A stretch of DNA of 62,071 nt, from contig JAZROI010000106.1 in assembly GCA_045648585.1 (NCBI GenBank), forward strand, positions 1-62,071, written 5' to 3'. The notes under the pieces are model-generated. The model saw only the letters and a program-made list of their open reading frames with translations, was not told the DNA's origin and searched no databases. Below are positions 35,302 through 42,635 of this stretch, piece after piece (position 1 is the first letter of the stretch; each line of letters starts with the position of its first letter). The DNA is from Acutalibacteraceae bacterium (GTDB lineage: Bacteria > Bacillota > Clostridia > Oscillospirales > Acutalibacteraceae). A program made the position numbers and the translations under genes.

Positions 35302-37512
35302 TCAAAACCTCTCAATAAATTCATCAAGAGCGTTGTGAAGCTCTGTTTTGAGCGTATCGTCTAATTTTTTAGCGGATTTTACTGCGAGAGAAAGCTCTGC
35401 TTTCTCAGTTTCAAAGAAACGGTAAAGCTCTTTTTCAAAGCGTTCCATATCTTTTACTTCAACGTTTTTAGCATAGCCCTCGCTGACAGCGTATATCAAT
35501 ACTGTTTGCAATTCATCTGCAATAGGTGAATATCTACCTTGCTTGAGGGCTTCGGTAAGCCTTTTACCTGCCTCAAGAGTAGCTTTTGTTGCATCGTCAA
35601 TGTCTGAGCCGAATTGCATGAATTCTGCAAGCTCTCTGTATTGAGCAAGTCTTGTACGAAGGCTTGCGGAAACCTTTTTCATAACGGGACTTTGAGCCGC
35701 ACCGCCAACACGGGAAACGGAAAGACCTACGTTTATTGCAGGGCGTTGACCCTCGTTGAAAAGCTCTGCATCAAGGAAAATCTGACCGTCGGTAATAGAT
35801 ATAACGTTTGTGGGGATATATGCCGATATATCACCCGCAAGAGTTTCGATTATGGGAAGTGCGGTAATTGAGCCGCCGCCAAGCTCATCCGAAAGATGGG
35901 CCGCTCTTTCAAGAAGTCTTGAATGAAGATAGAAAATATCACCGGGGTAAGCCTCACGGCCTGAGGGACGGTGAAGCAAAAGTGAAAGCTCACGGTATGC
36001 AACGGCGTGCTTTGAAAGGTCATCGTAAACTATAAGTACGTCCTTACCCTCATACATGAAATGCTCTGCCATTGCCGCACCTGAGAATGGGGCAATATAT
36101 TGAAGAGCTGCAGAGGCTGAAGCGGGGACGGCAATAATAGTTGTATAATCCATTGCACCCTTTGCCTGAAGCTTTTCTTTAATTTCAGCAACAAGGGTTT
36201 CTTTTTGACCGATTGCAACGTAAATACAAATTGTATTTTTACCCTTTTGGTTAATAATCGTGTCAATTGCGATTGCGGTTTTACCTGTCTGTCTATCACC
36301 AATAATAAGCTCTCTTTGTCCTTTACCGATAGGTACAAGAGCGTCAATAGCCTTAATACCCGTGTGCAAGGGGGAGTTAACGGGAGCTCTGTCAAGAATT
36401 GCTGGAGCCTTGAATTCAATAGGTCTTCGTTTTTCATAGGGAAGGTAGCCCATAGCATCAATAGGTTTACCTAAAGCATCTACAACTCTGCCTAAAAGGG
36501 CATCACCAACGGGCACGGAAGCGATTCTGCCTACACGTCTTACACGGCTATAGGATTCAATGTGAGCGAATTCGCCGAAAATAACGCAACCTATACGGTT
36601 CTGCTGAATATCGAGAACCATACCTTTTTCGCCACATTCAAACTCAACAACCTCACCGTACATAATATCGGCAAGACCGTCCATCCAACAAATACCGTCG
36701 GAAACGGATATAACACGGCCTAATTGATATTTATGAATTTTAGGTCTGAATTCTTCAGCTTTTTGGGTGAATTCCTGAATAAGTAAGCTTACGGTGTCGT
36801 CGTCCATAATCGGCTCGTGGTTCATATTCTTTTCGAAGTGGTAAAGCTCTTCGCTAACAGTGCCGTCGTAAACGGTATCACCTATACGAAGCTTAAGACC
36901 ACCGATAAGAGTATTATCCTCAAGCACCCAAAGAGACGTTTTACCGCCTACGCTGTCAAGAAGCTCTGTTGTTGCTTTATCGATTTTATCAACTAATTCC
37001 TTTTCAAGAGGAAAAGCAGAGGTAATAGTAACGTAAAGCACGTCGTGATGCTTAAGGTAAGACATATCACCGTCTGTAAGACGGATATCAGCTAAAATAG
37101 CGTCAACAACCTGACTATCAAGAGCCTTGATTTCGTTTGCATACTTTTCATAAGAGAAAAGCTTGATAACGTTTTCTTTCATAACGGAGAAAAGCTCTTT
37201 TCTTGCATCCTCAATCATTTGACGGTGGATTTCGCTATATTCTCTTTCACCGAAAGCTTTTATTGAGTTTATTTTTTCTTCTACGTTTGCCTTTGCTTTT
37301 AAAACCTCTTCAGTATCAGTATCTTCAATAATTTCTTGAGATACGGGCTCAAATACGGGCATTTCTAATTTTTCAATTTCCTCAGCCTCGTCAAGAGCCT
37401 TGTTGATTTTTTTAAGGCGGTCACCGAAAATACGCTTAATTGTTTTTCGACCCGCTAAAACAATAATGGCAACAAGAATAATAAAGTTAATTATTACGTA
37501 TTGTATTTCCAT
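35302..37512 (-). CDS. atpA: Single ORF encoding a b-like TM/coiled-coil segment, the delta (OSCP) C-terminal domain and a full-length F1 alpha subunit
   Basis: 736 codons from the ATG at 37512. Residues ~1-110 are b-like (TM helix plus charged helix). Residues ~160-235 match the delta C-terminus (SAFPLEKE...LIGGLKLRIGDTVYDGTV). Residues ~239-739 are a normal alpha (Walker A GDRQTGKT). There is no stop between the parts. Confidence 0.8.
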   Translation of the reverse strand: MEIQYVIINFIILVAIIVLAGRKTIKRIFGDRLKKINKALDEAEEIEKLEMPVFEPVSQEIIEDTDTEEVLKAKANVEEKINSIKAFGEREYSEIHRQMIEDARKELFSVMKENVIKLFSYEKYANEIKALDSQVVDAILADIRLTDGDMSYLKHHDVLYVTITSAFPLEKELVDKIDKATTELLDSVGGKTSLWVLEDNTLIGGLKLRIGDTVYDGTVSEELYHFEKNMNHEPIMDDDTVSLLIQEFTQKAEEFRPKIHKYQLGRVISVSDGICWMDGLADIMYGEVVEFECGEKGMVLDIQQNRIGCVIFGEFAHIESYSRVRRVGRIASVPVGDALLGRVVDALGKPIDAMGYLPYEKRRPIEFKAPAILDRAPVNSPLHTGIKAIDALVPIGKGQRELIIGDRQTGKTAIAIDTIINQKGKNTICIYVAIGQKETLVAEIKEKLQAKGAMDYTTIIAVPASASAALQYIAPFSGAAMAEHFMYEGKDVLIVYDDLSKHAVAYRELSLLLHRPSGREAYPGDIFYLHSRLLERAAHLSDELGGGSITALPIIETLAGDISAYIPTNVISITDGQIFLDAELFNEGQRPAINVGLSVSRVGGAAQSPVMKKVSASLRTRLAQYRELAEFMQFGSDIDDATKATLEAGKRLTEALKQGRYSPIADELQTVLIYAVSEGYAKNVEVKDMERFEKELYRFFETEKAELSLAVKSAKKLDDTLKTELHNALDEFIERF

Positions 37513-37517
37513 AATTC

Positions 37518-37943
37518 TCAAATCCTATGTGAGATTATATTTTTCGCAAACAAAGCTGCCGCTGTTTCCATTTTAGGAGCAACGGAGTCAACGATTTTAT
37601 CGTGTTCATCTTTAATGCCTTCTCTGTATTTTTGTACGTCGTCAAGGCATTGTCTTTGCGCGGCTTCAATTTCTTTTTTGCCCTGAAGCTGTATTTGTTC
37701 AAGCTTCTGCTTTGATTGTTTTCTTTTTTTCTCTTCAAATAAAACTCTTTCTTTTTCAATCTGAGCCTCATTTTCGAGAATTAACTTTTCAATAGTTGCT
37801 TTTTTCTCTTTAGCAGCCTCTGTTTTTTCGCGGCGGCTATCCATTATTTTTAAAATGGGAGTAAAAAGTAAATTTTTAAGTATTACGGTCAAAAGCAAAA
37901 AGCAAATTACAGTCCAGACCATTATTGATGGTTGAATATTCAT
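37518..37943 (-). CDS. atpF: Fo ATP synthase b subunit
   Basis: 141 aa with an N-terminal TM helix followed by a long charged helix. Confidence 0.85.
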   Translation of the reverse strand: MNIQPSIMVWTVICFLLLTVILKNLLFTPILKIMDSRREKTEAAKEKKATIEKLILENEAQIEKERVLFEEKKRKQSKQKLEQIQLQGKKEIEAAQRQCLDDVQKYREGIKDEHDKIVDSVAPKMETAAALFAKNIISHRI

Positions 37944-38269: not shown

Positions 38270-38938
38270 TTATTCTGTAACCTCGTCAAGATAAATTGAA
38301 ACGAGCATTGTAAATACCATTGCCTGTAAAGCACAAAATAGTAAAGAGAGCACCATCATTACTACGGGTGCACCGATAGGGAAAATGTGATACAGCTCTT
38401 CCGTAACCATTTCCTCACCGAAAATGTTACCGTAAAGCCTAAGTGCCAAAGAGGCAGGTTTTATTATTTCATCAAGTAAAAGAAGCGGTAGCATAAAAAA
38501 CATCGGTGAAACGAAATGCTTGAAATAGTGCTTCGCATTGTGTCGTATACCTGAAATCTGTAAAAACAGGAAGGTAACAATACCTAATGCCGCCGTAACG
38601 GAAAGAGAGGCAGTAGGTGCTTTTACGTAGTCGGTAAGACCTACACCGGGTATCATACCCGAATAGTTTGAAAAGATAATGAAAATAAAAAGAGATGCAA
38701 GGAAGGTAAAATATTTTCTTGATTTCTTTTTGCCGAGAATGTCAGCGAAGAAGTTGTCAAGATATTCTACACCGGTTTCAATAACGTTTTGAAGCTTTCC
38801 CGGTCTTTCCTTAAGGCTCTTTTTGACTATAAGCGACAGCAACGTGATAAAGAGAAGCATTATCCACATCGTAATAACCTCGCCCGTTACGTCAAGTATG
38901 CCGAAAAGCTCGATAATAACCTCTGATTTTTCACCCAT
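38270..38938 (-). CDS. atpB: Fo ATP synthase a subunit
   Basis: About 222 aa, polytopic. Conserved LALRLYGNIFGEE motif. The ATG at 38938 lies 9 nt after AAGGAGG. Confidence 0.9.
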   Translation of the reverse strand: MGEKSEVIIELFGILDVTGEVITMWIMLLFITLLSLIVKKSLKERPGKLQNVIETGVEYLDNFFADILGKKKSRKYFTFLASLFIFIIFSNYSGMIPGVGLTDYVKAPTASLSVTAALGIVTFLFLQISGIRHNAKHYFKHFVSPMFFMLPLLLLDEIIKPASLALRLYGNIFGEEMVTEELYHIFPIGAPVVMMVLSLLFCALQAMVFTMLVSIYLDEVTE

Positions 38939-39260
38939 CGGCTTCACCCTCCTTTTCTTCTTTTTTAGTATCGGCAGTTTTATTAAAGCTTAAAAGCTTT
39001 TTTGTAAAATAAACCATAGGTATCGTCATACCTAAAACTGCACCGACAAGTAAGTACATTACGTTTGCAATTTCAGTTTTTGTTCCGATAAAATAAACTA
39101 AAACAAGGAAAAGAACTTGTAAAACCTGCCGTGCCATAGTTGTAAAAAGAAATTTGTCAGGCGTTTTTATAAGCACTTTCTTTGAAAAAGTGTAGTTTAT
39201 GAAAGCTACTAAAAAACCGGCAATTGCCGCAACGATAGCGCCAATAATATCCGGGTTCAT
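38931..39260 (-). CDS. atpI: AtpI/AtpZ-like small membrane protein
   Basis: 109 aa with 3-4 TM segments. First gene of the atp operon. Confidence 0.6.
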   Translation of the reverse strand: MNPDIIGAIVAAIAGFLVAFINYTFSKKVLIKTPDKFLFTTMARQVLQVLFLVLVYFIGTKTEIANVMYLLVGAVLGMTIPMVYFTKKLLSFNKTADTKKEEKEGEADG

Positions 39261-39313
39261 ATAATCACCAGCTTATACTAATTATTATAGTGAATATGCT
39301 ATATTCACTCTGT

Positions 39314-39341
39314 ATTATAGCACTTTGATTTCAATTTTCAA
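39314..39341 (-). promoter_or_regulatory. Candidate atp operon promoter
   Basis: On the minus strand: TTGAAA (39336-39341), 16-nt spacer, TATAAT (39314-39319). Confidence 0.4.
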
Positions 39342-39447
39342 TAGAATTATTTTACTTTTTTAAAGGGGCTTAAAAAGGTGTTTTTTGTTCATAATGTACA
39401 TTAAATTGACGGAACAAAAGTTGGAATAATATTTACTTAAAAATTCA

Positions 39448-39476
39448 TTGACATAGTAATTTTGCTGTGGTAAACT
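39448..39476 (+). promoter_or_regulatory. Promoter of the SCIFF locus
   Basis: TTGACA (39448-39453), 17-nt spacer, TAAACT (39471-39476). Confidence 0.55.
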
Positions 39477-39507
39477 ATATACGAAAAAATATAGGGAGGC
39501 CTTTCTC

Positions 39508-39660
39508 ATGGAACACATTAAAACAATTGAAACACGTAATTTGTGTGAAAGTGCAAAAAACGGTGGTTGTGGCGAGTGCCAGACATCTTGTCAGTCAGCT
39601 TGCAAAACAAGCTGCGGTATCGCAAACCAGGAATGTGAAAACGTTAAAGAAAGCAAGTAA
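39508..39660 (+). CDS. scfA: SCIFF-family Cys-rich RiPP precursor peptide (50 aa), not present in the ORF track
   Basis: GGGAGG RBS (39494-39499) lies 8 nt before the ATG. Translation is MEHIKTIETRNLCESAKNGGCGECQTSCQSACKTSCGIANQECENVKESK. The core GGCGECQTSCQSACKTSC is the hallmark of the 'six cysteines in forty-five residues' family. Confidence 0.9.
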   Translation: MEHIKTIETRNLCESAKNGGCGECQTSCQSACKTSCGIANQECENVKESK

Positions 39661-39676
39661 TTTTACATGCCGAAAT

Positions 39677-39700
39677 GCCGCCGGAACGGGCGGCTTTTTT
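39677..39700 (+). terminator. Intercistronic hairpin plus T6 (partial terminator/attenuator) between precursor and maturase
   Basis: GCCGCC-GGAACG-GGCGGC followed by TTTTTT, immediately upstream of the maturase RBS GAAGGAG. Confidence 0.7.
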
Positions 39701-39719
39701 CGTGAAGGAGATATATTAT

Positions 39720-41099
39720 ATGATTCATCAGTACAAGCAAGGTGGCTACAATATCGTGCTTGACGTTTGCTCAGGTGCCGTTCACGTTGTGGATGAGGTA
39801 GCTTACGATATTATTGCTATGTTTGAGGATAAAGAAAAGGATGAAATATTAAGTGTTTTATCCGAGAAATATAACGACCGTGACGATATCACCGATAACG
39901 ATATTGAAGAGTGTTATTCTCAGGTGCAGGGCTTAAAGGATTCAGGGAAGCTTTTTGCTCCCGATACTTTTGAGTCTATGGCAGGTACACTTAAGCAGAA
40001 AACTGCAGGTGTAGTAAAGGCTTTGTGCTTACACGTTGCTCATACTTGTAACCTTAACTGTGCTTATTGCTTTGCAAGTCAGGGAAAATATAACGGTGAA
40101 AGAGACGTAATGAGTCTTGAGGTCGGTAAACGTGCTCTTGATTTCCTCGTTGAAAATTCAGGTAGCCGTCATAATCTCGAGGTTGACTTTTTCGGCGGAG
40201 AGCCTCTTATGAATTTTGACGTGGTTAAAGAACTTGTAGCGTATGCAAGAAGCATAGAAAAAGAGCATAATAAAAACTTCCGTTTCACGCTTACGACTAA
40301 CGGCGTGCTTGTTGACGACGATGTTATTGATTTTGCTAATAAAGAGTGTAGCAACGTTGTTCTCAGCCTTGACGGACGAAAAGAAATTCACGACCGCTAC
40401 CGTGTTGACTATGCGGGTAACGGCAGCTGGGAAAAAATCGTTCCTAAATTCCAGAAATTTGTTGAAGCAAGAAATGGTAAAAATTATTATATGCGAGGCA
40501 CCTTTACCCACGCAAACCCTGATTTCCTTAAAGATATTCAGCAAATGCTCGATTTAGGCTTTAGTGAGTTAAGTATGGAGCCTGTTGTTTGTGCACCGGG
40601 TGACCCCTCTGAGCTTACCGAAGAGGATTTAGCAATCGTAATGAAGCAATATGAGGATTTAGCCGATTTAATGCTTAAAAGAGATAAAGAGGGCAAACCC
40701 TTTACCTTCTATCACTATATGATTGACCTTACAGGCGGTCCTTGTATCTACAAACGAATTTCAGGCTGCGGTAGCGGTACTGAATATATGGCGGTTACAC
40801 CTTGGGGCGATTTATATCCTTGTCATCAGTTCGTAGGCGATGAAAAATTCAAATTAGGTAACGTTTGGGATGGTGTTACAAACCACGAAATTCAAAGTGA
40901 GTTTGCCGCTTGTAACGTTTATGCTCATCCCGAATGTAAAGATTGTTGGGCAAGACTTTATTGCTCAGGCGGTTGTGCGGCTAACGCTTACCACGCAACA
41001 GGCTCTGTTACGGGCGTTTATGAAAGCGGTTGCCGTCTTTTCCGTAAGCGTATGGAGTGTGCGATTATGGTTGCAATCGCAAGAGCACTCGGAGAATAA
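39720..41099 (+). CDS. scfB: SCIFF radical SAM/SPASM maturase
   Basis: MIHQYKQGGYNIVLD... Contains a CNLNCAYC (CxxxCxxC) cluster and a C-terminal SPASM Cys pattern (CGSG...C..C.ARLYCSGGC). The ATG at 39720 follows GAAGGAG. Confidence 0.9.
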   Translation: MIHQYKQGGYNIVLDVCSGAVHVVDEVAYDIIAMFEDKEKDEILSVLSEKYNDRDDITDNDIEECYSQVQGLKDSGKLFAPDTFESMAGTLKQKTAGVVKALCLHVAHTCNLNCAYCFASQGKYNGERDVMSLEVGKRALDFLVENSGSRHNLEVDFFGGEPLMNFDVVKELVAYARSIEKEHNKNFRFTLTTNGVLVDDDVIDFANKECSNVVLSLDGRKEIHDRYRVDYAGNGSWEKIVPKFQKFVEARNGKNYYMRGTFTHANPDFLKDIQQMLDLGFSELSMEPVVCAPGDPSELTEEDLAIVMKQYEDLADLMLKRDKEGKPFTFYHYMIDLTGGPCIYKRISGCGSGTEYMAVTPWGDLYPCHQFVGDEKFKLGNVWDGVTNHEIQSEFAACNVYAHPECKDCWARLYCSGGCAANAYHATGSVTGVYESGCRLFRKRMECAIMVAIARALGE

Positions 41100-41101
41100 T
41101 A

Positions 41102-42442
41102 ATGAATACTCCCATTTGTGATTTTGTACGCCAGTACAACGAAAATTCAGCCTTGCGAATGCATATGCCGGGGCATAAAGGCAAAAGCTTTCTCGGCTTT
41201 GAGAATCTTGATATAACAGAGTTTGACGGTGCGGATGATTTATATAACCCAACGGGTATAATAAAACAAAGTGAGGATAATGCATCAAAATTATTCGGCT
41301 TTCCAACATATTATTCTACCGAGGGTGCATCTCATTGCATTCGTGCTATGATGTACCTTGTGGCTTTAAATGCAAAGGAAAACGGTAAAAAGCCTATTAT
41401 TGCTGCAGGCAGAAATGCTCACAAAACCTTTGTAAGTGCGGTGTCACTTTTAGATTTCAGAATTGCGTGGTTATATCCCGATAATGATGAATCCTACCTT
41501 TCCTGCAATATTTCACCCGAGGCTTTCGAAAGCTTTCTTGAAAATGCTGAAGAAAAACCGGTGGCTTTATACCTTACAAGCCCCGATTATCTTGGTAATA
41601 TTGCAGATATTGAGGGACTTTCCCGAGTATGCCGTAAACACGGAGTTCTTTTAGCTGTAGATAATGCCCACGGAGCATATCTTAAGTTTTTAGAGGAATC
41701 CCGCCATCCAATAGATTCAGGTGCTCATTTGTGTTGTGACTCTGCTCATAAAACCTTACCCGTTGTTACGGGCGGAGCGTATATTCATATTTCAAATGAG
41801 CTTTCCGATTTTTATTGTGAGGATGTAAAAAATGCTTTGGCACTTTTCGGCTCAACGAGTCCGTCGTATTTGATTTTGCAGTCTTTGGATGCTTGTAATT
41901 CATATCTTGAAGGCTACAAAAAGAAATTAGCCAATTTTTTGCCTTTAGTTGCAGAAACAAAAGCAAGTCTTGAGAAAAAAGGATATCGCTTCTACGGTGA
42001 CGAACCTATGAAGCTTACTATATCAGCTAAAGCTTACGGCTATACGGGCACGGAGCTTGCCGATATTCTTAAGGGAAACAATATTTTTTGTGAATTTTTT
42101 GACCCCGATTATCTTGTGCTTATGCCTACACCTGAAACGGAAAAATCAGGGCTTGAAAGGGTAACGCAGGCGTTAGCAGCAATTCCGAAAAAAGCTGTAA
42201 AAAAAGATATTCCACCCAAATTCGCAAAGCCTGAAAAGGTTATGAGTGTGAGAGAAGCGTCTATGTCACCGTCAGAAATACTTCCCATAGAAGAATGTGA
42301 GGGGAGAATACTTTCTGCTGTTACTGTAGGCTGCCCACCGGCAGTACCGATTATAGTTTGCGGCGAAAGAATAACAAAAGAGGTTATAACCGCTTTTAAA
42401 TATTACGGAATTACCAATTGCAGTGTAGTTTTGGAAGGATAA
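41102..42442 (+). CDS. PLP-dependent Orn/Lys/Arg decarboxylase-family protein
   Basis: MNTPICDF... Contains the MHMPGHKG motif and a SAHKTLP Lys-PLP motif. Confidence 0.8.
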   Translation: MNTPICDFVRQYNENSALRMHMPGHKGKSFLGFENLDITEFDGADDLYNPTGIIKQSEDNASKLFGFPTYYSTEGASHCIRAMMYLVALNAKENGKKPIIAAGRNAHKTFVSAVSLLDFRIAWLYPDNDESYLSCNISPEAFESFLENAEEKPVALYLTSPDYLGNIADIEGLSRVCRKHGVLLAVDNAHGAYLKFLEESRHPIDSGAHLCCDSAHKTLPVVTGGAYIHISNELSDFYCEDVKNALALFGSTSPSYLILQSLDACNSYLEGYKKKLANFLPLVAETKASLEKKGYRFYGDEPMKLTISAKAYGYTGTELADILKGNNIFCEFFDPDYLVLMPTPETEKSGLERVTQALAAIPKKAVKKDIPPKFAKPEKVMSVREASMSPSEILPIEECEGRILSAVTVGCPPAVPIIVCGERITKEVITAFKYYGITNCSVVLEG

Positions 42443-42447
42443 AAAGA

Positions 42448-42483
42448 AAAAGCCGGAGCAATGAAAGTTGCTCCGGCTTTTTG
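42448..42483 (+). terminator. Intrinsic terminator
   Basis: Stem AAGCCGGAGCAA / TTGCTCCGGCTT followed by a T run. Confidence 0.85.
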
Positions 42484-42559: not shown

Positions 42560-42635
42560 TGGTCCGAGTGGCGAGACTTGAACTCACGGCCTCTTGACCC
42601 CCAGTCAAGCGCGCTACCAACTGCGCCACACCCGG
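42560..42635 (-). tRNA. tRNA-Pro (anticodon GGG), CCA encoded
   Basis: 76-nt cloverleaf built by hand. Acceptor CCGGGTG/CACTCGG, anticodon loop CTGGGGG, T-arm GTGAG-TTCAAGT-CTCGC, discriminator A, then CCA. Confidence 0.9.

Follow-up and report, generated by a model that had tools for sequence, protein, structure and literature searches.

Questions raised by the locus

A 50-codon ORF lies in front of a radical-SAM enzyme gene in the Acutalibacteraceae DNA analysed here (the window, that is the whole stretch of 62,071 nt), and a GC-rich hairpin separates the two. This raises the question of whether the short ORF encodes a genuine SCIFF precursor peptide and, if so, how the production of the peptide is balanced against that of the enzyme acting on it. 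The original prediction had placed the gene at 39508-39660, behind a TTGACA-17-TAAACT promoter and a ribosome-binding site, GGGAGG, that stands 8 nt from the ATG; the ORF, the promoter and the ribosome-binding site are indeed all found there. It had also called the gene unlisted; it is missing from the length-filtered ORF list, but it does appear once the minimum length is lowered to 30 aa. Length-filtered ORF lists thus miss scfA, and the loss of such small genes from lists of this kind has been noted as a problem before (PMC5300114).

The precursor gene scfA

The scfA gene runs on the plus strand from the ATG at 39508 to the TAA at 39658-39660, and its 50 aa product is MEHIKTIETRNLCESAKNGGCGECQTSCQSACKTSCGIANQECENVKESK. 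In profile searches, ScfA scored 80.5 bits against the SCIFF model TIGR03973 (cut-off 50; E = 6e-23), which bears out the proposed family identity, and 82.1 bits against PF13165 (cut-off 27). A SCIFF peptide is taken to have about 45-50 aa with six cysteines in its C-terminal half. In ScfA these core cysteines are C21, C24, C28, C32, C36 and C43, spaced in the SCIFF pattern C-x2-C-x3-C-x3-C-x3-C-x6-C, and together with an additional leader cysteine, Cys13, they amount to seven cysteines in 50 codons. A protein search returned 5298 homologues, the top ones being 94-98% identical and distributed across dozens of species, and some homologues carry the NCBI name 'six-cysteine ranthipeptide SCIFF'. 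By one criterion, SCIFF precursors are encoded at most 500 bp from an ScfB-type radical-SAM gene (PMC5300114), and the spacer of 59 nt between scfA and scfB is well inside this limit.

Upstream of scfA, the promoter scan identified a near-consensus sigma-70-type promoter with an extended -10 element (39448-39476, plus strand; score 10/12), consisting of TTGACA at 39448-39453, a 17 nt spacing and TAAACT at 39471-39476, with the TG at 39468-39469. Its position and quality are conserved among relatives: of 80 related loci, most have TTGAC[TA]-17-TGnTAnnnT equally far from scfA, the -10 element ending 30-36 nt before the ATG, and nucleotide homology with two of the related loci, L001 and L002, begins at 39429-39435, just 5' of the -35 element. 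The ribosome-binding site GGGAGG, read from the sequence at 39494-39499 on the plus strand, likewise has a GGAGG counterpart at the corresponding place in relatives.

The maturase gene scfB

The scfB gene (39720-41099, plus strand) encodes a 459 aa radical-SAM/SPASM protein and is preceded by a ribosome-binding site, GAAGGAG, read from the sequence at 39704-39710 on the plus strand, which starts 4 nt after the T-tract of the hairpin and lies 9 nt from the ATG. The assignment of this downstream gene as the SCIFF maturase is upheld by a score of 765.6 bits against TIGR03974 (cut-off 425) and by the presence of the expected CxxxCxxC and SPASM cysteines, and the score against the 'not_ScfB' exception model NF040492 is 572.4 bits, under its cut-off of 855. 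Pfam matches are to Radical_SAM, Fer4_12 and SPASM, with Radical_SAM and SPASM above their cut-offs. A match to PqqD, an RRE-like domain, at residues 12-64 is weak (17.9 bits, under the 23.4 cut-off). End to end, ScfB is 54% identical (E = 2.3e-165) to PDB entry 5WGG, which was deposited as 'Radical SAM domain protein' and which we take to be CteB, and its N-terminus aligns without a break with the N-terminal domain of that protein. The CxxxCxxC motif, C110/C114/C117, is conserved in 5WGG, and the SPASM-side cysteines C342, C350, C368, C406, C409, C415, C419, C438 and C447 all align with CteB cysteines. A longer scfB ORF starting at 39675, which would overlap the hairpin, was considered and rejected, as TIGR03974 and CteB align from residue 1-2 of the 459 aa form; judged from these alignments, the ATG at 39720 is the true start.

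The biochemically and structurally characterized SCIFF systems are CteA/CteB (thermocellin) of Clostridium (Acetivibrio) thermocellum and Tte1186a/Tte1186 of Caldanaerobacter subterraneus. As in both of these systems the precursor gene precedes the maturase gene, ScfA contains the invariant core GGCGECQTSCQSACKTSC of CteA and Tte1186a, and ScfB shares the architecture of a radical-SAM core and SPASM region behind a putative RRE, with the cluster cysteines of CteB kept. Unlike CteA and Tte1186a, however, ScfA carries Cys13 in its leader, has G-I-A rather than T-V-G at residues 37-39 and ends in a longer, charged tail. ScfB also matches the QhpD model TIGR03906 (262.8 bits, E = 4.9e-78), although under the cut-off of that model. 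QhpD makes non-alpha thioethers between Cys and Asp or Glu (PMC8326336). QhpC differs from ScfA in being a structural subunit of quinohemoprotein amine dehydrogenase rather than a free peptide, and the scfAB locus contains no dehydrogenase.

The hairpin between scfA and scfB

The 6-bp all-GC hairpin followed by T6 that had been predicted at 39677-39700 is present and is conserved in relatives. With its A-rich 5' flank it occupies 39672-39700 on the plus strand; the sequence GCCGCC-GGAACG-GGCGGC (39677-39694) forms arms at 39677-39682 and 39689-39694 around a 6 nt loop, and T6 follows at 39695-39700. It begins 16 nt past the scfA stop codon, and 19 nt separate the end of the T-tract from the scfB ATG. 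A GC-rich stem-loop, an immediate U-tract and a position 3' of a stop codon are the features of an intrinsic terminator. The local fold has an energy of -19.4 kcal/mol (z = -2.56), and the hairpin is retained when the whole transcript is folded. No Rfam family reached its threshold in the 5' UTR and spacer, whether the whole window was scanned at the gathering threshold or 39261-39760 was scanned permissively, the best match (E = 0.04) falling far under its gathering score.

Terminator-like hairpins were found in 66 of 75 related scfA-scfB spacers, compared with 67 of 1469 random segments of the same length (4.6%), and the majority of canonical loci likewise carry a hairpin in the spacer. The stems of relatives are 9-14 bp long with good U-tracts; the stem in the window has just 6 bp because a U-U mismatch stands where a U-A pair is usual. 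In the alignment of related loci, none of the ten stem pairs lacks a compensatory double change, and the loops are 3 to 8 nt long. In 61 species, conservation exceeds 90% in each column of the stem, between flanks that vary, and the stem sequence itself is kept over family-level divergence. The distance from stop codon to hairpin is also conserved, at about 10-20 nt. We also asked whether GCCGCC/GGCGGC stems are repeated in these genomes or serve them as a general terminator, and rejected this, since in the window and in the related loci the stem is found at this site alone; the 62-kb window has a single copy of the motif, where chance would give 0.01. We found no description of a SCIFF terminator in the literature.

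Proposed expression of the operon

We propose that the locus is an scfA-scfB operon encoding a SCIFF ranthipeptide system, and we assign the model that follows a probability of about 0.85. What the data show directly is the family membership of both proteins, the conservation of promoter and hairpin, the conserved gene order, and that the scan predicts no internal promoter. According to this model, synthesis of the 50 aa ScfA would rest on a strong ribosome-binding site and on a sigma-A promoter that is likewise strong and carries an extended -10 element. Most transcripts would probably stop at the hairpin; the resulting scfA mRNA would be short, abundant and possibly stabilized by the hairpin at its 3' end. 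The fraction that reads through would probably feed scfB and the translationally coupled gene for a PLP enzyme that follows it, so that substrate mRNA would lie far above enzyme mRNA. Termination and read-through in vivo are predicted; a real and conserved hairpin fits the earlier idea of an excess of precursor transcript. ScfB, with its putative N-terminal RRE, radical-SAM core and SPASM twin-cluster domain, would then bind the ScfA leader and install at least one non-alpha thioether (C-beta or C-gamma) from core cysteines, the chemistry and the position of these cross-links being predicted from homology. In other RiPP operons, for instance those of lantibiotics, a leaky terminator between precursor and modification genes provides precursor mRNA in excess. 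The present locus resembles these operons in its succession of strong promoter, short precursor gene, stem-loop and enzyme genes, but differs from them in that the sequence of the stem itself is conserved across bacterial families.

A rather unlikely alternative is that scfA is monocistronic, with the hairpin acting as an efficient terminator and 3' stabilizer, and that scfB and the PLP-enzyme gene are transcribed from a promoter inside the scfA coding sequence. The long stems and good U-tracts of the relatives do predict efficient termination, and a few relatives have spacers of 170-400 nt that could house a promoter of scfB's own. However, the promoter scan found no promoter-like site on the plus strand from 39476 to 40462, and the hairpin lies less than 30 nt from the start of scfB, both in the window and among most relatives.

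The hairpin had been called an attenuator. In its regulated sense this term would imply that translation of the cysteine-rich scfA senses the supply of cysteine or Cys-tRNA and tunes termination in the manner of amino-acid leader peptides, and a short cysteine-rich ORF that ends 16 nt ahead of a terminator, at a distance so conserved that a terminating ribosome would stand near the stem, is what such a mechanism would look like. We nevertheless consider it very unlikely, as neither the minimum free energy nor the centroid fold of the full transcript contains a competing antiterminator pairing, scfA belongs to a bona fide peptide family with its own maturase and is not a disposable leader, and the downstream genes do not serve cysteine biosynthesis. 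On the basis of these folds, leaky intrinsic terminator is the safer term.

The exceptional conservation of the stem between variable flanks, and the confinement of the palindrome ATGCCGCC...GGCGGCAT to this one site, could also be expected of a DNA operator bound by a dimeric regulator. This explanation is highly improbable: the gap between half-sites can be as short as 3 nt or reach 8 nt and more, other sequences take over the pairing in divergent loci (GGTGCCACC/GGTGGCA, ACCCGCATAAT/ATTATGCGGGT and GGCTGCT/AGCAGC), and a T-tract always lies 3' of the palindrome. Varying spacing, covarying arms and a constant T-tract are what an RNA terminator would typically show, and an operator would not. 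Lastly, the idea that this short ORF arose by chance or is the decayed remains of a gene, and is not expressed, for which nothing speaks except its size and its absence from the length-filtered list, is effectively refuted already by conservation at the sequence level, namely the family-model E value of 6e-23, the 94-98% identity to orthologues in dozens of species, and a promoter, ribosome-binding site and partner enzyme that are all conserved.

Lineage features of the peptide

Two features that had been taken as peculiar to this copy turned out to be shared. Cys13 is present in 80 of 80 related genome loci and in the best 120 of the 5298 protein matches, and the charged, KESK-like C-terminal tail is found throughout the lineage. 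A further difference concerns position 37, which is Gly here and in 80/80 lineage loci but Thr in 80/80 canonical loci, whereas Thr34 is retained in the ScfA of the window. For characterized SCIFFs, Thr37 has been reported as the thioether acceptor in vitro, and the literature is split over which of the two threonines, 34 or 37, accepts the thioether (PMC8326336). Because Gly replaces Thr37, the cross-link pattern of CteA or Tte1186a is not simply transferable to this peptide. Neither the change from Thr37 to Gly nor the conserved third gene described below formed part of the original prediction.

A third gene next to scfB

Immediately downstream, at 41102-42442 on the plus strand, lies a gene for a 446 aa PLP enzyme with the Orn/Lys/Arg decarboxylase fold. 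Its product matches PF01276 (103.5 bits) and PF03711 as well as PDB 2X3L (E = 1.5e-33), and 60 of 60 of these PLP enzymes have the S-x-H-K lysine motif. The gene starts 2 nt past the scfB stop codon and is probably co-transcribed with scfB. Such a gene lies immediately 3' of scfB at 62 of 67 evaluable lineage loci, compared with none of 57 canonical loci; with upstream in-frame ATGs from crude start-calling discounted, its start mostly falls about -4 to +10 nt from the scfB stop codon among the lineage loci. In the canonical-type metagenome loci sampled, by contrast, scfB is followed by secDF, tgt or recJ. The PLP gene is the sole conserved neighbour of the lineage scfAB loci; the upstream ATP-synthase operon was rejected as a conserved neighbourhood (0/80 loci). 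The closest related loci come from Acutalibacteraceae and Oscillospiraceae MAGs, with 79-83% nucleotide identity. Beyond the PLP gene, a palindromic hairpin of 15 bp with A5 and T5 flanks (42447-42482; reported on the minus strand, but symmetric) is a probable bidirectional terminator for the operon and for the convergent tRNA-Pro gene at 42560-42635 on the minus strand.

This linkage allows a tentative and, on balance, unlikely proposal: the Oscillospirales-type SCIFF would be a three-gene cassette of scfA, scfB and a YaaO/SAR0482-like fold-type-I PLP enzyme that works with the cross-linked peptide, a partnership that Cys13 and the change from Thr37 to Gly would accompany. Within such a cassette the peptide might be tailored by the PLP enzyme or might serve as its small subunit or regulator, as in QhpC/QhpD, a speculative likeness that serves to motivate the idea. 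In the literature, we found no link between SCIFF and either a decarboxylase or a PLP enzyme.

Significance for SCIFF biology

Going by its sequence, the scfA-scfB pair is an ordinary orthologue of a known and automatically annotated family. Most Clostridia have a SCIFF/ScfB pair, the family is covered by annotation models of its own and by a crystal structure, and its members are recognized as a matter of routine, so that the pair itself adds little, and the comparative by-products, namely Gly37, the terminator and the linkage to the PLP gene, are more useful. The earlier statement that no role has been established for the family in any organism is partly outdated: for Clostridium beijerinckii and C. 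ljungdahlii, which have the same two-gene system but belong to another order of Clostridia and carry another peptide subtype, the reviews PMC8326336 and PMC8102284 cite Chen et al. 2020 (Biotechnol J) for a role in quorum sensing and in cell regulation. In their account, knock-outs alter the expression of sporulation genes and of agr quorum-sensing genes, and this is the sole SCIFF system with a reported phenotype. This suggests a function in cell-density or regulatory signalling.

The strong conservation of the terminator argues for selection on the ratio of precursor to enzyme, and the existence of an entire gut and rumen lineage without Thr37 bears on the disagreement over the thioether-accepting threonine. 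The tight linkage of the PLP gene to loci that are otherwise free of synteny offers a lead on SCIFF biology that can be tested. If the three-gene cassette is true, the role of SCIFF in this lineage would be intracellular and enzyme-associated rather than that of a secreted signal, and it would provide a concrete handle on the old question of SCIFF function.

Results

The SCIFF precursor gene scfA comprises 50 codons on the forward strand, from an ATG at 39508 to a TAA at 39658–39660, and its product is MEHIKTIETRNLCESAKNGGCGECQTSCQSACKTSCGIANQECENVKESK. It is preceded by an extended −10 promoter, which scored 10/12 in a promoter scan (TTGACA at 39448–39453, a 17-nt spacer and TAAACT at 39471–39476, with TG at 39468–39469), and, on reading the sequence, by a ribosome-binding site GGGAGG at 39494–39499, with the ATG 8 nt further on. 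All of these elements are present where the original prediction had placed them. The gene had also been described as unlisted; it is indeed absent from the length-filtered ORF list, but the sole cause is the length cut-off, and the 98-aa out-of-frame ORF is an artefact of mechanical ORF calling. In profile searches, ScfA matched TIGR03973, ‘six-cysteine ranthipeptide SCIFF’, with 80.5 bits (cut-off 50), as had been anticipated, and PF13165 with 82.1 bits (cut-off 27). The database contains 5298 homologues, the best of which are 94–98% identical, and some, from Oscillospiraceae or Ruminococcaceae MAGs, carry the NCBI name SCIFF.

The adjoining maturase gene scfB (39720–41099, forward strand) starts at the ATG at 39720, with a ribosome-binding site GAAGGAG read at 39704–39710, and encodes a 459-aa product that scored 765.6 bits against TIGR03974, ‘thioether cross-link-forming SCIFF peptide maturase’ (cut-off 425), and 572 bits, below the cut-off of 855, against NF040492, an exception model for ScfB-like orphans. 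Along its whole length it aligns with PDB 5WGG/5WHY (E = 2.3e-165, 54% identity), entries titled only ‘Radical SAM domain protein’ which we take to be CteB of Clostridium thermocellum. The CxxxCxxC cluster (C110/C114/C117) and nine SPASM-region cysteines are kept between the two, in agreement with the cysteine pattern predicted for this gene. Both the family model and the CteB sequence align from residue 1–2, and therefore a start at 39675, giving an extended 474-aa form, was rejected as a further ORF-calling artefact. No record of the exact ScfB sequence was found in public assemblies, and the loci nearest to the window are from Acutalibacteraceae and Oscillospiraceae MAGs with 79–83% nucleotide identity. 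Taken together, the family-model, structure and homologue matches support the SCIFF interpretation and indicate that the pair is a known system, a new orthologue of a well-known and routinely annotated family.

The predicted all-GC hairpin between the two genes was found 16 nt 3′ of the scfA stop on the forward strand (GCCGCC-GGAACG-GGCGGC, 39677–39694, followed by six T). The region has a local folding energy of −19.4 kcal/mol (z = −2.56), and the hairpin is retained when the whole predicted transcript is folded, in both the MFE and the centroid structure. Under strict criteria (a perfectly paired stem of ≥5 bp with ≥3 GC pairs, a loop of 3–8 nt and a T-rich tail), a terminator-like hairpin was detected in 66 of 75 spacers from related genome loci, compared with 67 of 1469 length-matched random segments drawn from these loci (4.6%); several of the nine failures show hairpins by eye, with longer loops or weaker tails. 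The spacer has a median length of 72 nt in these lineage loci, and the hairpin usually starts 10–20 nt past the scfA stop and ends 15–30 nt ahead of the scfB start codon. When 61 distinct hairpins were aligned, the consensus was AAAUGCCGCC-loop-GGCGGCAUUUUU, with stem letters >90% conserved and loop and flanks freely variable; compensatory double changes were seen at least once at each of the ten stem pairs. In the 62-kb window, GCCGCC-N3-10-GGCGGC has a single occurrence (0.01 expected), and of the 46 fetched loci with the stem motif, almost all have it at the scfA–scfB site alone; it is thus neither a generic terminator nor a repeat of these genomes. Most canonical-type loci also have a hairpin 3′ of scfA, with sequences that differ from the lineage stem. 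Two relatives carry insertions in the spacer, L025 (6151–6558, 408 nt) and L030 (276 nt after the scfA stop); in the former, GTGAAGTT-like units recur alongside long inverted repeats, and on this basis the insertion may be a small element that is either mobile or structured.

The original prediction pointed out a seventh cysteine (C13) and a charged tail in this copy. Neither is peculiar to it: C13 is present in all 120 best protein hits and in 80/80 lineage loci, and a similar, KESK-type tail in nearly all of the 120 hits. A leader cysteine was found in none of 80 canonical loci, which are metagenome loci taken in order of their similarity to a canonical six-Cys query. A point that had been missed is a difference between the two samples at position 37: the window (scfA codons 37–39, 39616–39624) and all 80 lineage loci have C36-G37-[I/V]-A-N-Q, whereas the canonical peptides have C36-T37-V-G-N-Q, with Gly37 in 0/80. 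Thr34 is retained in the Gly37 lineage.

Two nucleotides past the scfB stop starts a third forward-strand gene (41102–42442), encoding a 446-aa PLP enzyme with an Orn/Lys/Arg-decarboxylase fold. The protein matched PF01276 (103.5 bits) and PF03711, and no NCBIfam equivalog came near its cut-off. Its closest match of known structure is 2X3L, a Staphylococcus aureus protein of 446 aa and unknown function titled ‘Orn/Lys/Arg decarboxylase family protein’. In tblastn searches, the gene directly follows scfB in 62 of the 67 lineage loci that could be evaluated, lies within 800 nt in two and is absent in three, compared with 0 of 57 evaluable canonical loci. In the canonical loci the usual genes after scfB are secDF, tgt or recJ, housekeeping surroundings that differ strongly from those in the window. 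When upstream in-frame ATGs from crude start-calling are discounted, the conserved start lies about −4 to +10 nt from the scfB stop in most loci, a spacing typical of translational coupling. An S-x-H-K motif, taken to be that of the PLP-binding lysine, is kept in 60/60 orthologues examined. When the two ORFs upstream and the three downstream were clustered across all lineage loci, the PLP gene was the sole conserved neighbour, the next largest cluster having four members. Between its stop and the convergent tRNA-Pro(GGG) gene (42560–42635, reverse strand), a perfect 15-bp palindrome with A5/T5 flanks (42447–42482) is probably a bidirectional terminator for the operon and the tRNA.

An ATP-synthase operon upstream of scfA, as in the window, was found in 0/80 lineage loci. 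In the window, a 109-aa hydrophobic ORF (38931–39260, reverse strand) at its head, divergent from scfA, has no Pfam match and may be an AtpI/AtpZ-like protein. A separate b subunit (37518–37943) and a 739-aa ORF (35302–37521) follow on the same strand, the latter being, according to Pfam, a fusion of an N-terminal membrane segment resembling subunit b with a delta (OSCP) domain and an entire alpha subunit.

Discussion

Most lineage loci have a promoter of the form TTGAC[T/A]-17-TGnTAnnnT that ends 30–36 nt 5′ of the ATG, and homology of the window to its closest relatives at the nucleotide level starts just 5′ of the −35. On this evidence, promoter, ribosome-binding site, peptide gene and terminator act as a single conserved module suited to high peptide expression. 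A window scan found no forward-strand promoter-like site between the scfA promoter and 40462, and the gap from the T-tract to the scfB ATG is only 19 nt; in the simplest model, therefore, scfB is transcribed by read-through of the scfA terminator. This supports the proposed excess of precursor over maturase transcript. Regulated attenuation, which had also been suggested, is unsupported, as the transcript fold contains no competing structure and no Rfam family reaches threshold in the window. A DNA operator is very unlikely, since variable half-site spacing, divergent yet paired variants and the constant T-tract point to an RNA terminator.

When two genes stay adjacent although the wider gene order is not kept, a functional or regulatory link is classically suspected, though not proven. 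We found no mention of the scfB–PLP gene adjacency in the literature, and a study of pig-gut isolates remarks only that SCIFF clusters have markedly different surroundings. A joint function of SCIFF and the PLP enzyme in the Cys13/Gly37 lineage is in our view unlikely, with a probability of roughly 0.15.

For the characterized systems Tte1186a and CteA, a single thioether between Cys32 and Thr37 has been reported in vitro, whereas co-expression of CteA and CteB in Escherichia coli gave a thioether from Cys32 to Thr34 (C-gamma) (review PMC8326336). The window lineage has glycine in place of the in vitro acceptor, and therefore the cross-link map of the characterized SCIFFs is not simply transferable to this peptide. 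A lineage lacking Thr37 but retaining Thr34 bears on the disagreement between the two acceptors.

The statement that no biological role has been established in any organism is partly outdated. According to the accounts of Chen et al. (2020) in PMC8326336 and PMC8102284, inactivating the genes for the precursor and the radical-SAM enzyme in C. beijerinckii decreased sporulation-gene expression and increased agr expression, and the peptides were proposed to participate in quorum sensing. To this family the present analysis adds modest leads at the level of the lineage, namely the conserved terminator stem, Gly37 together with Cys13, and the PLP-enzyme gene adjoining scfB.
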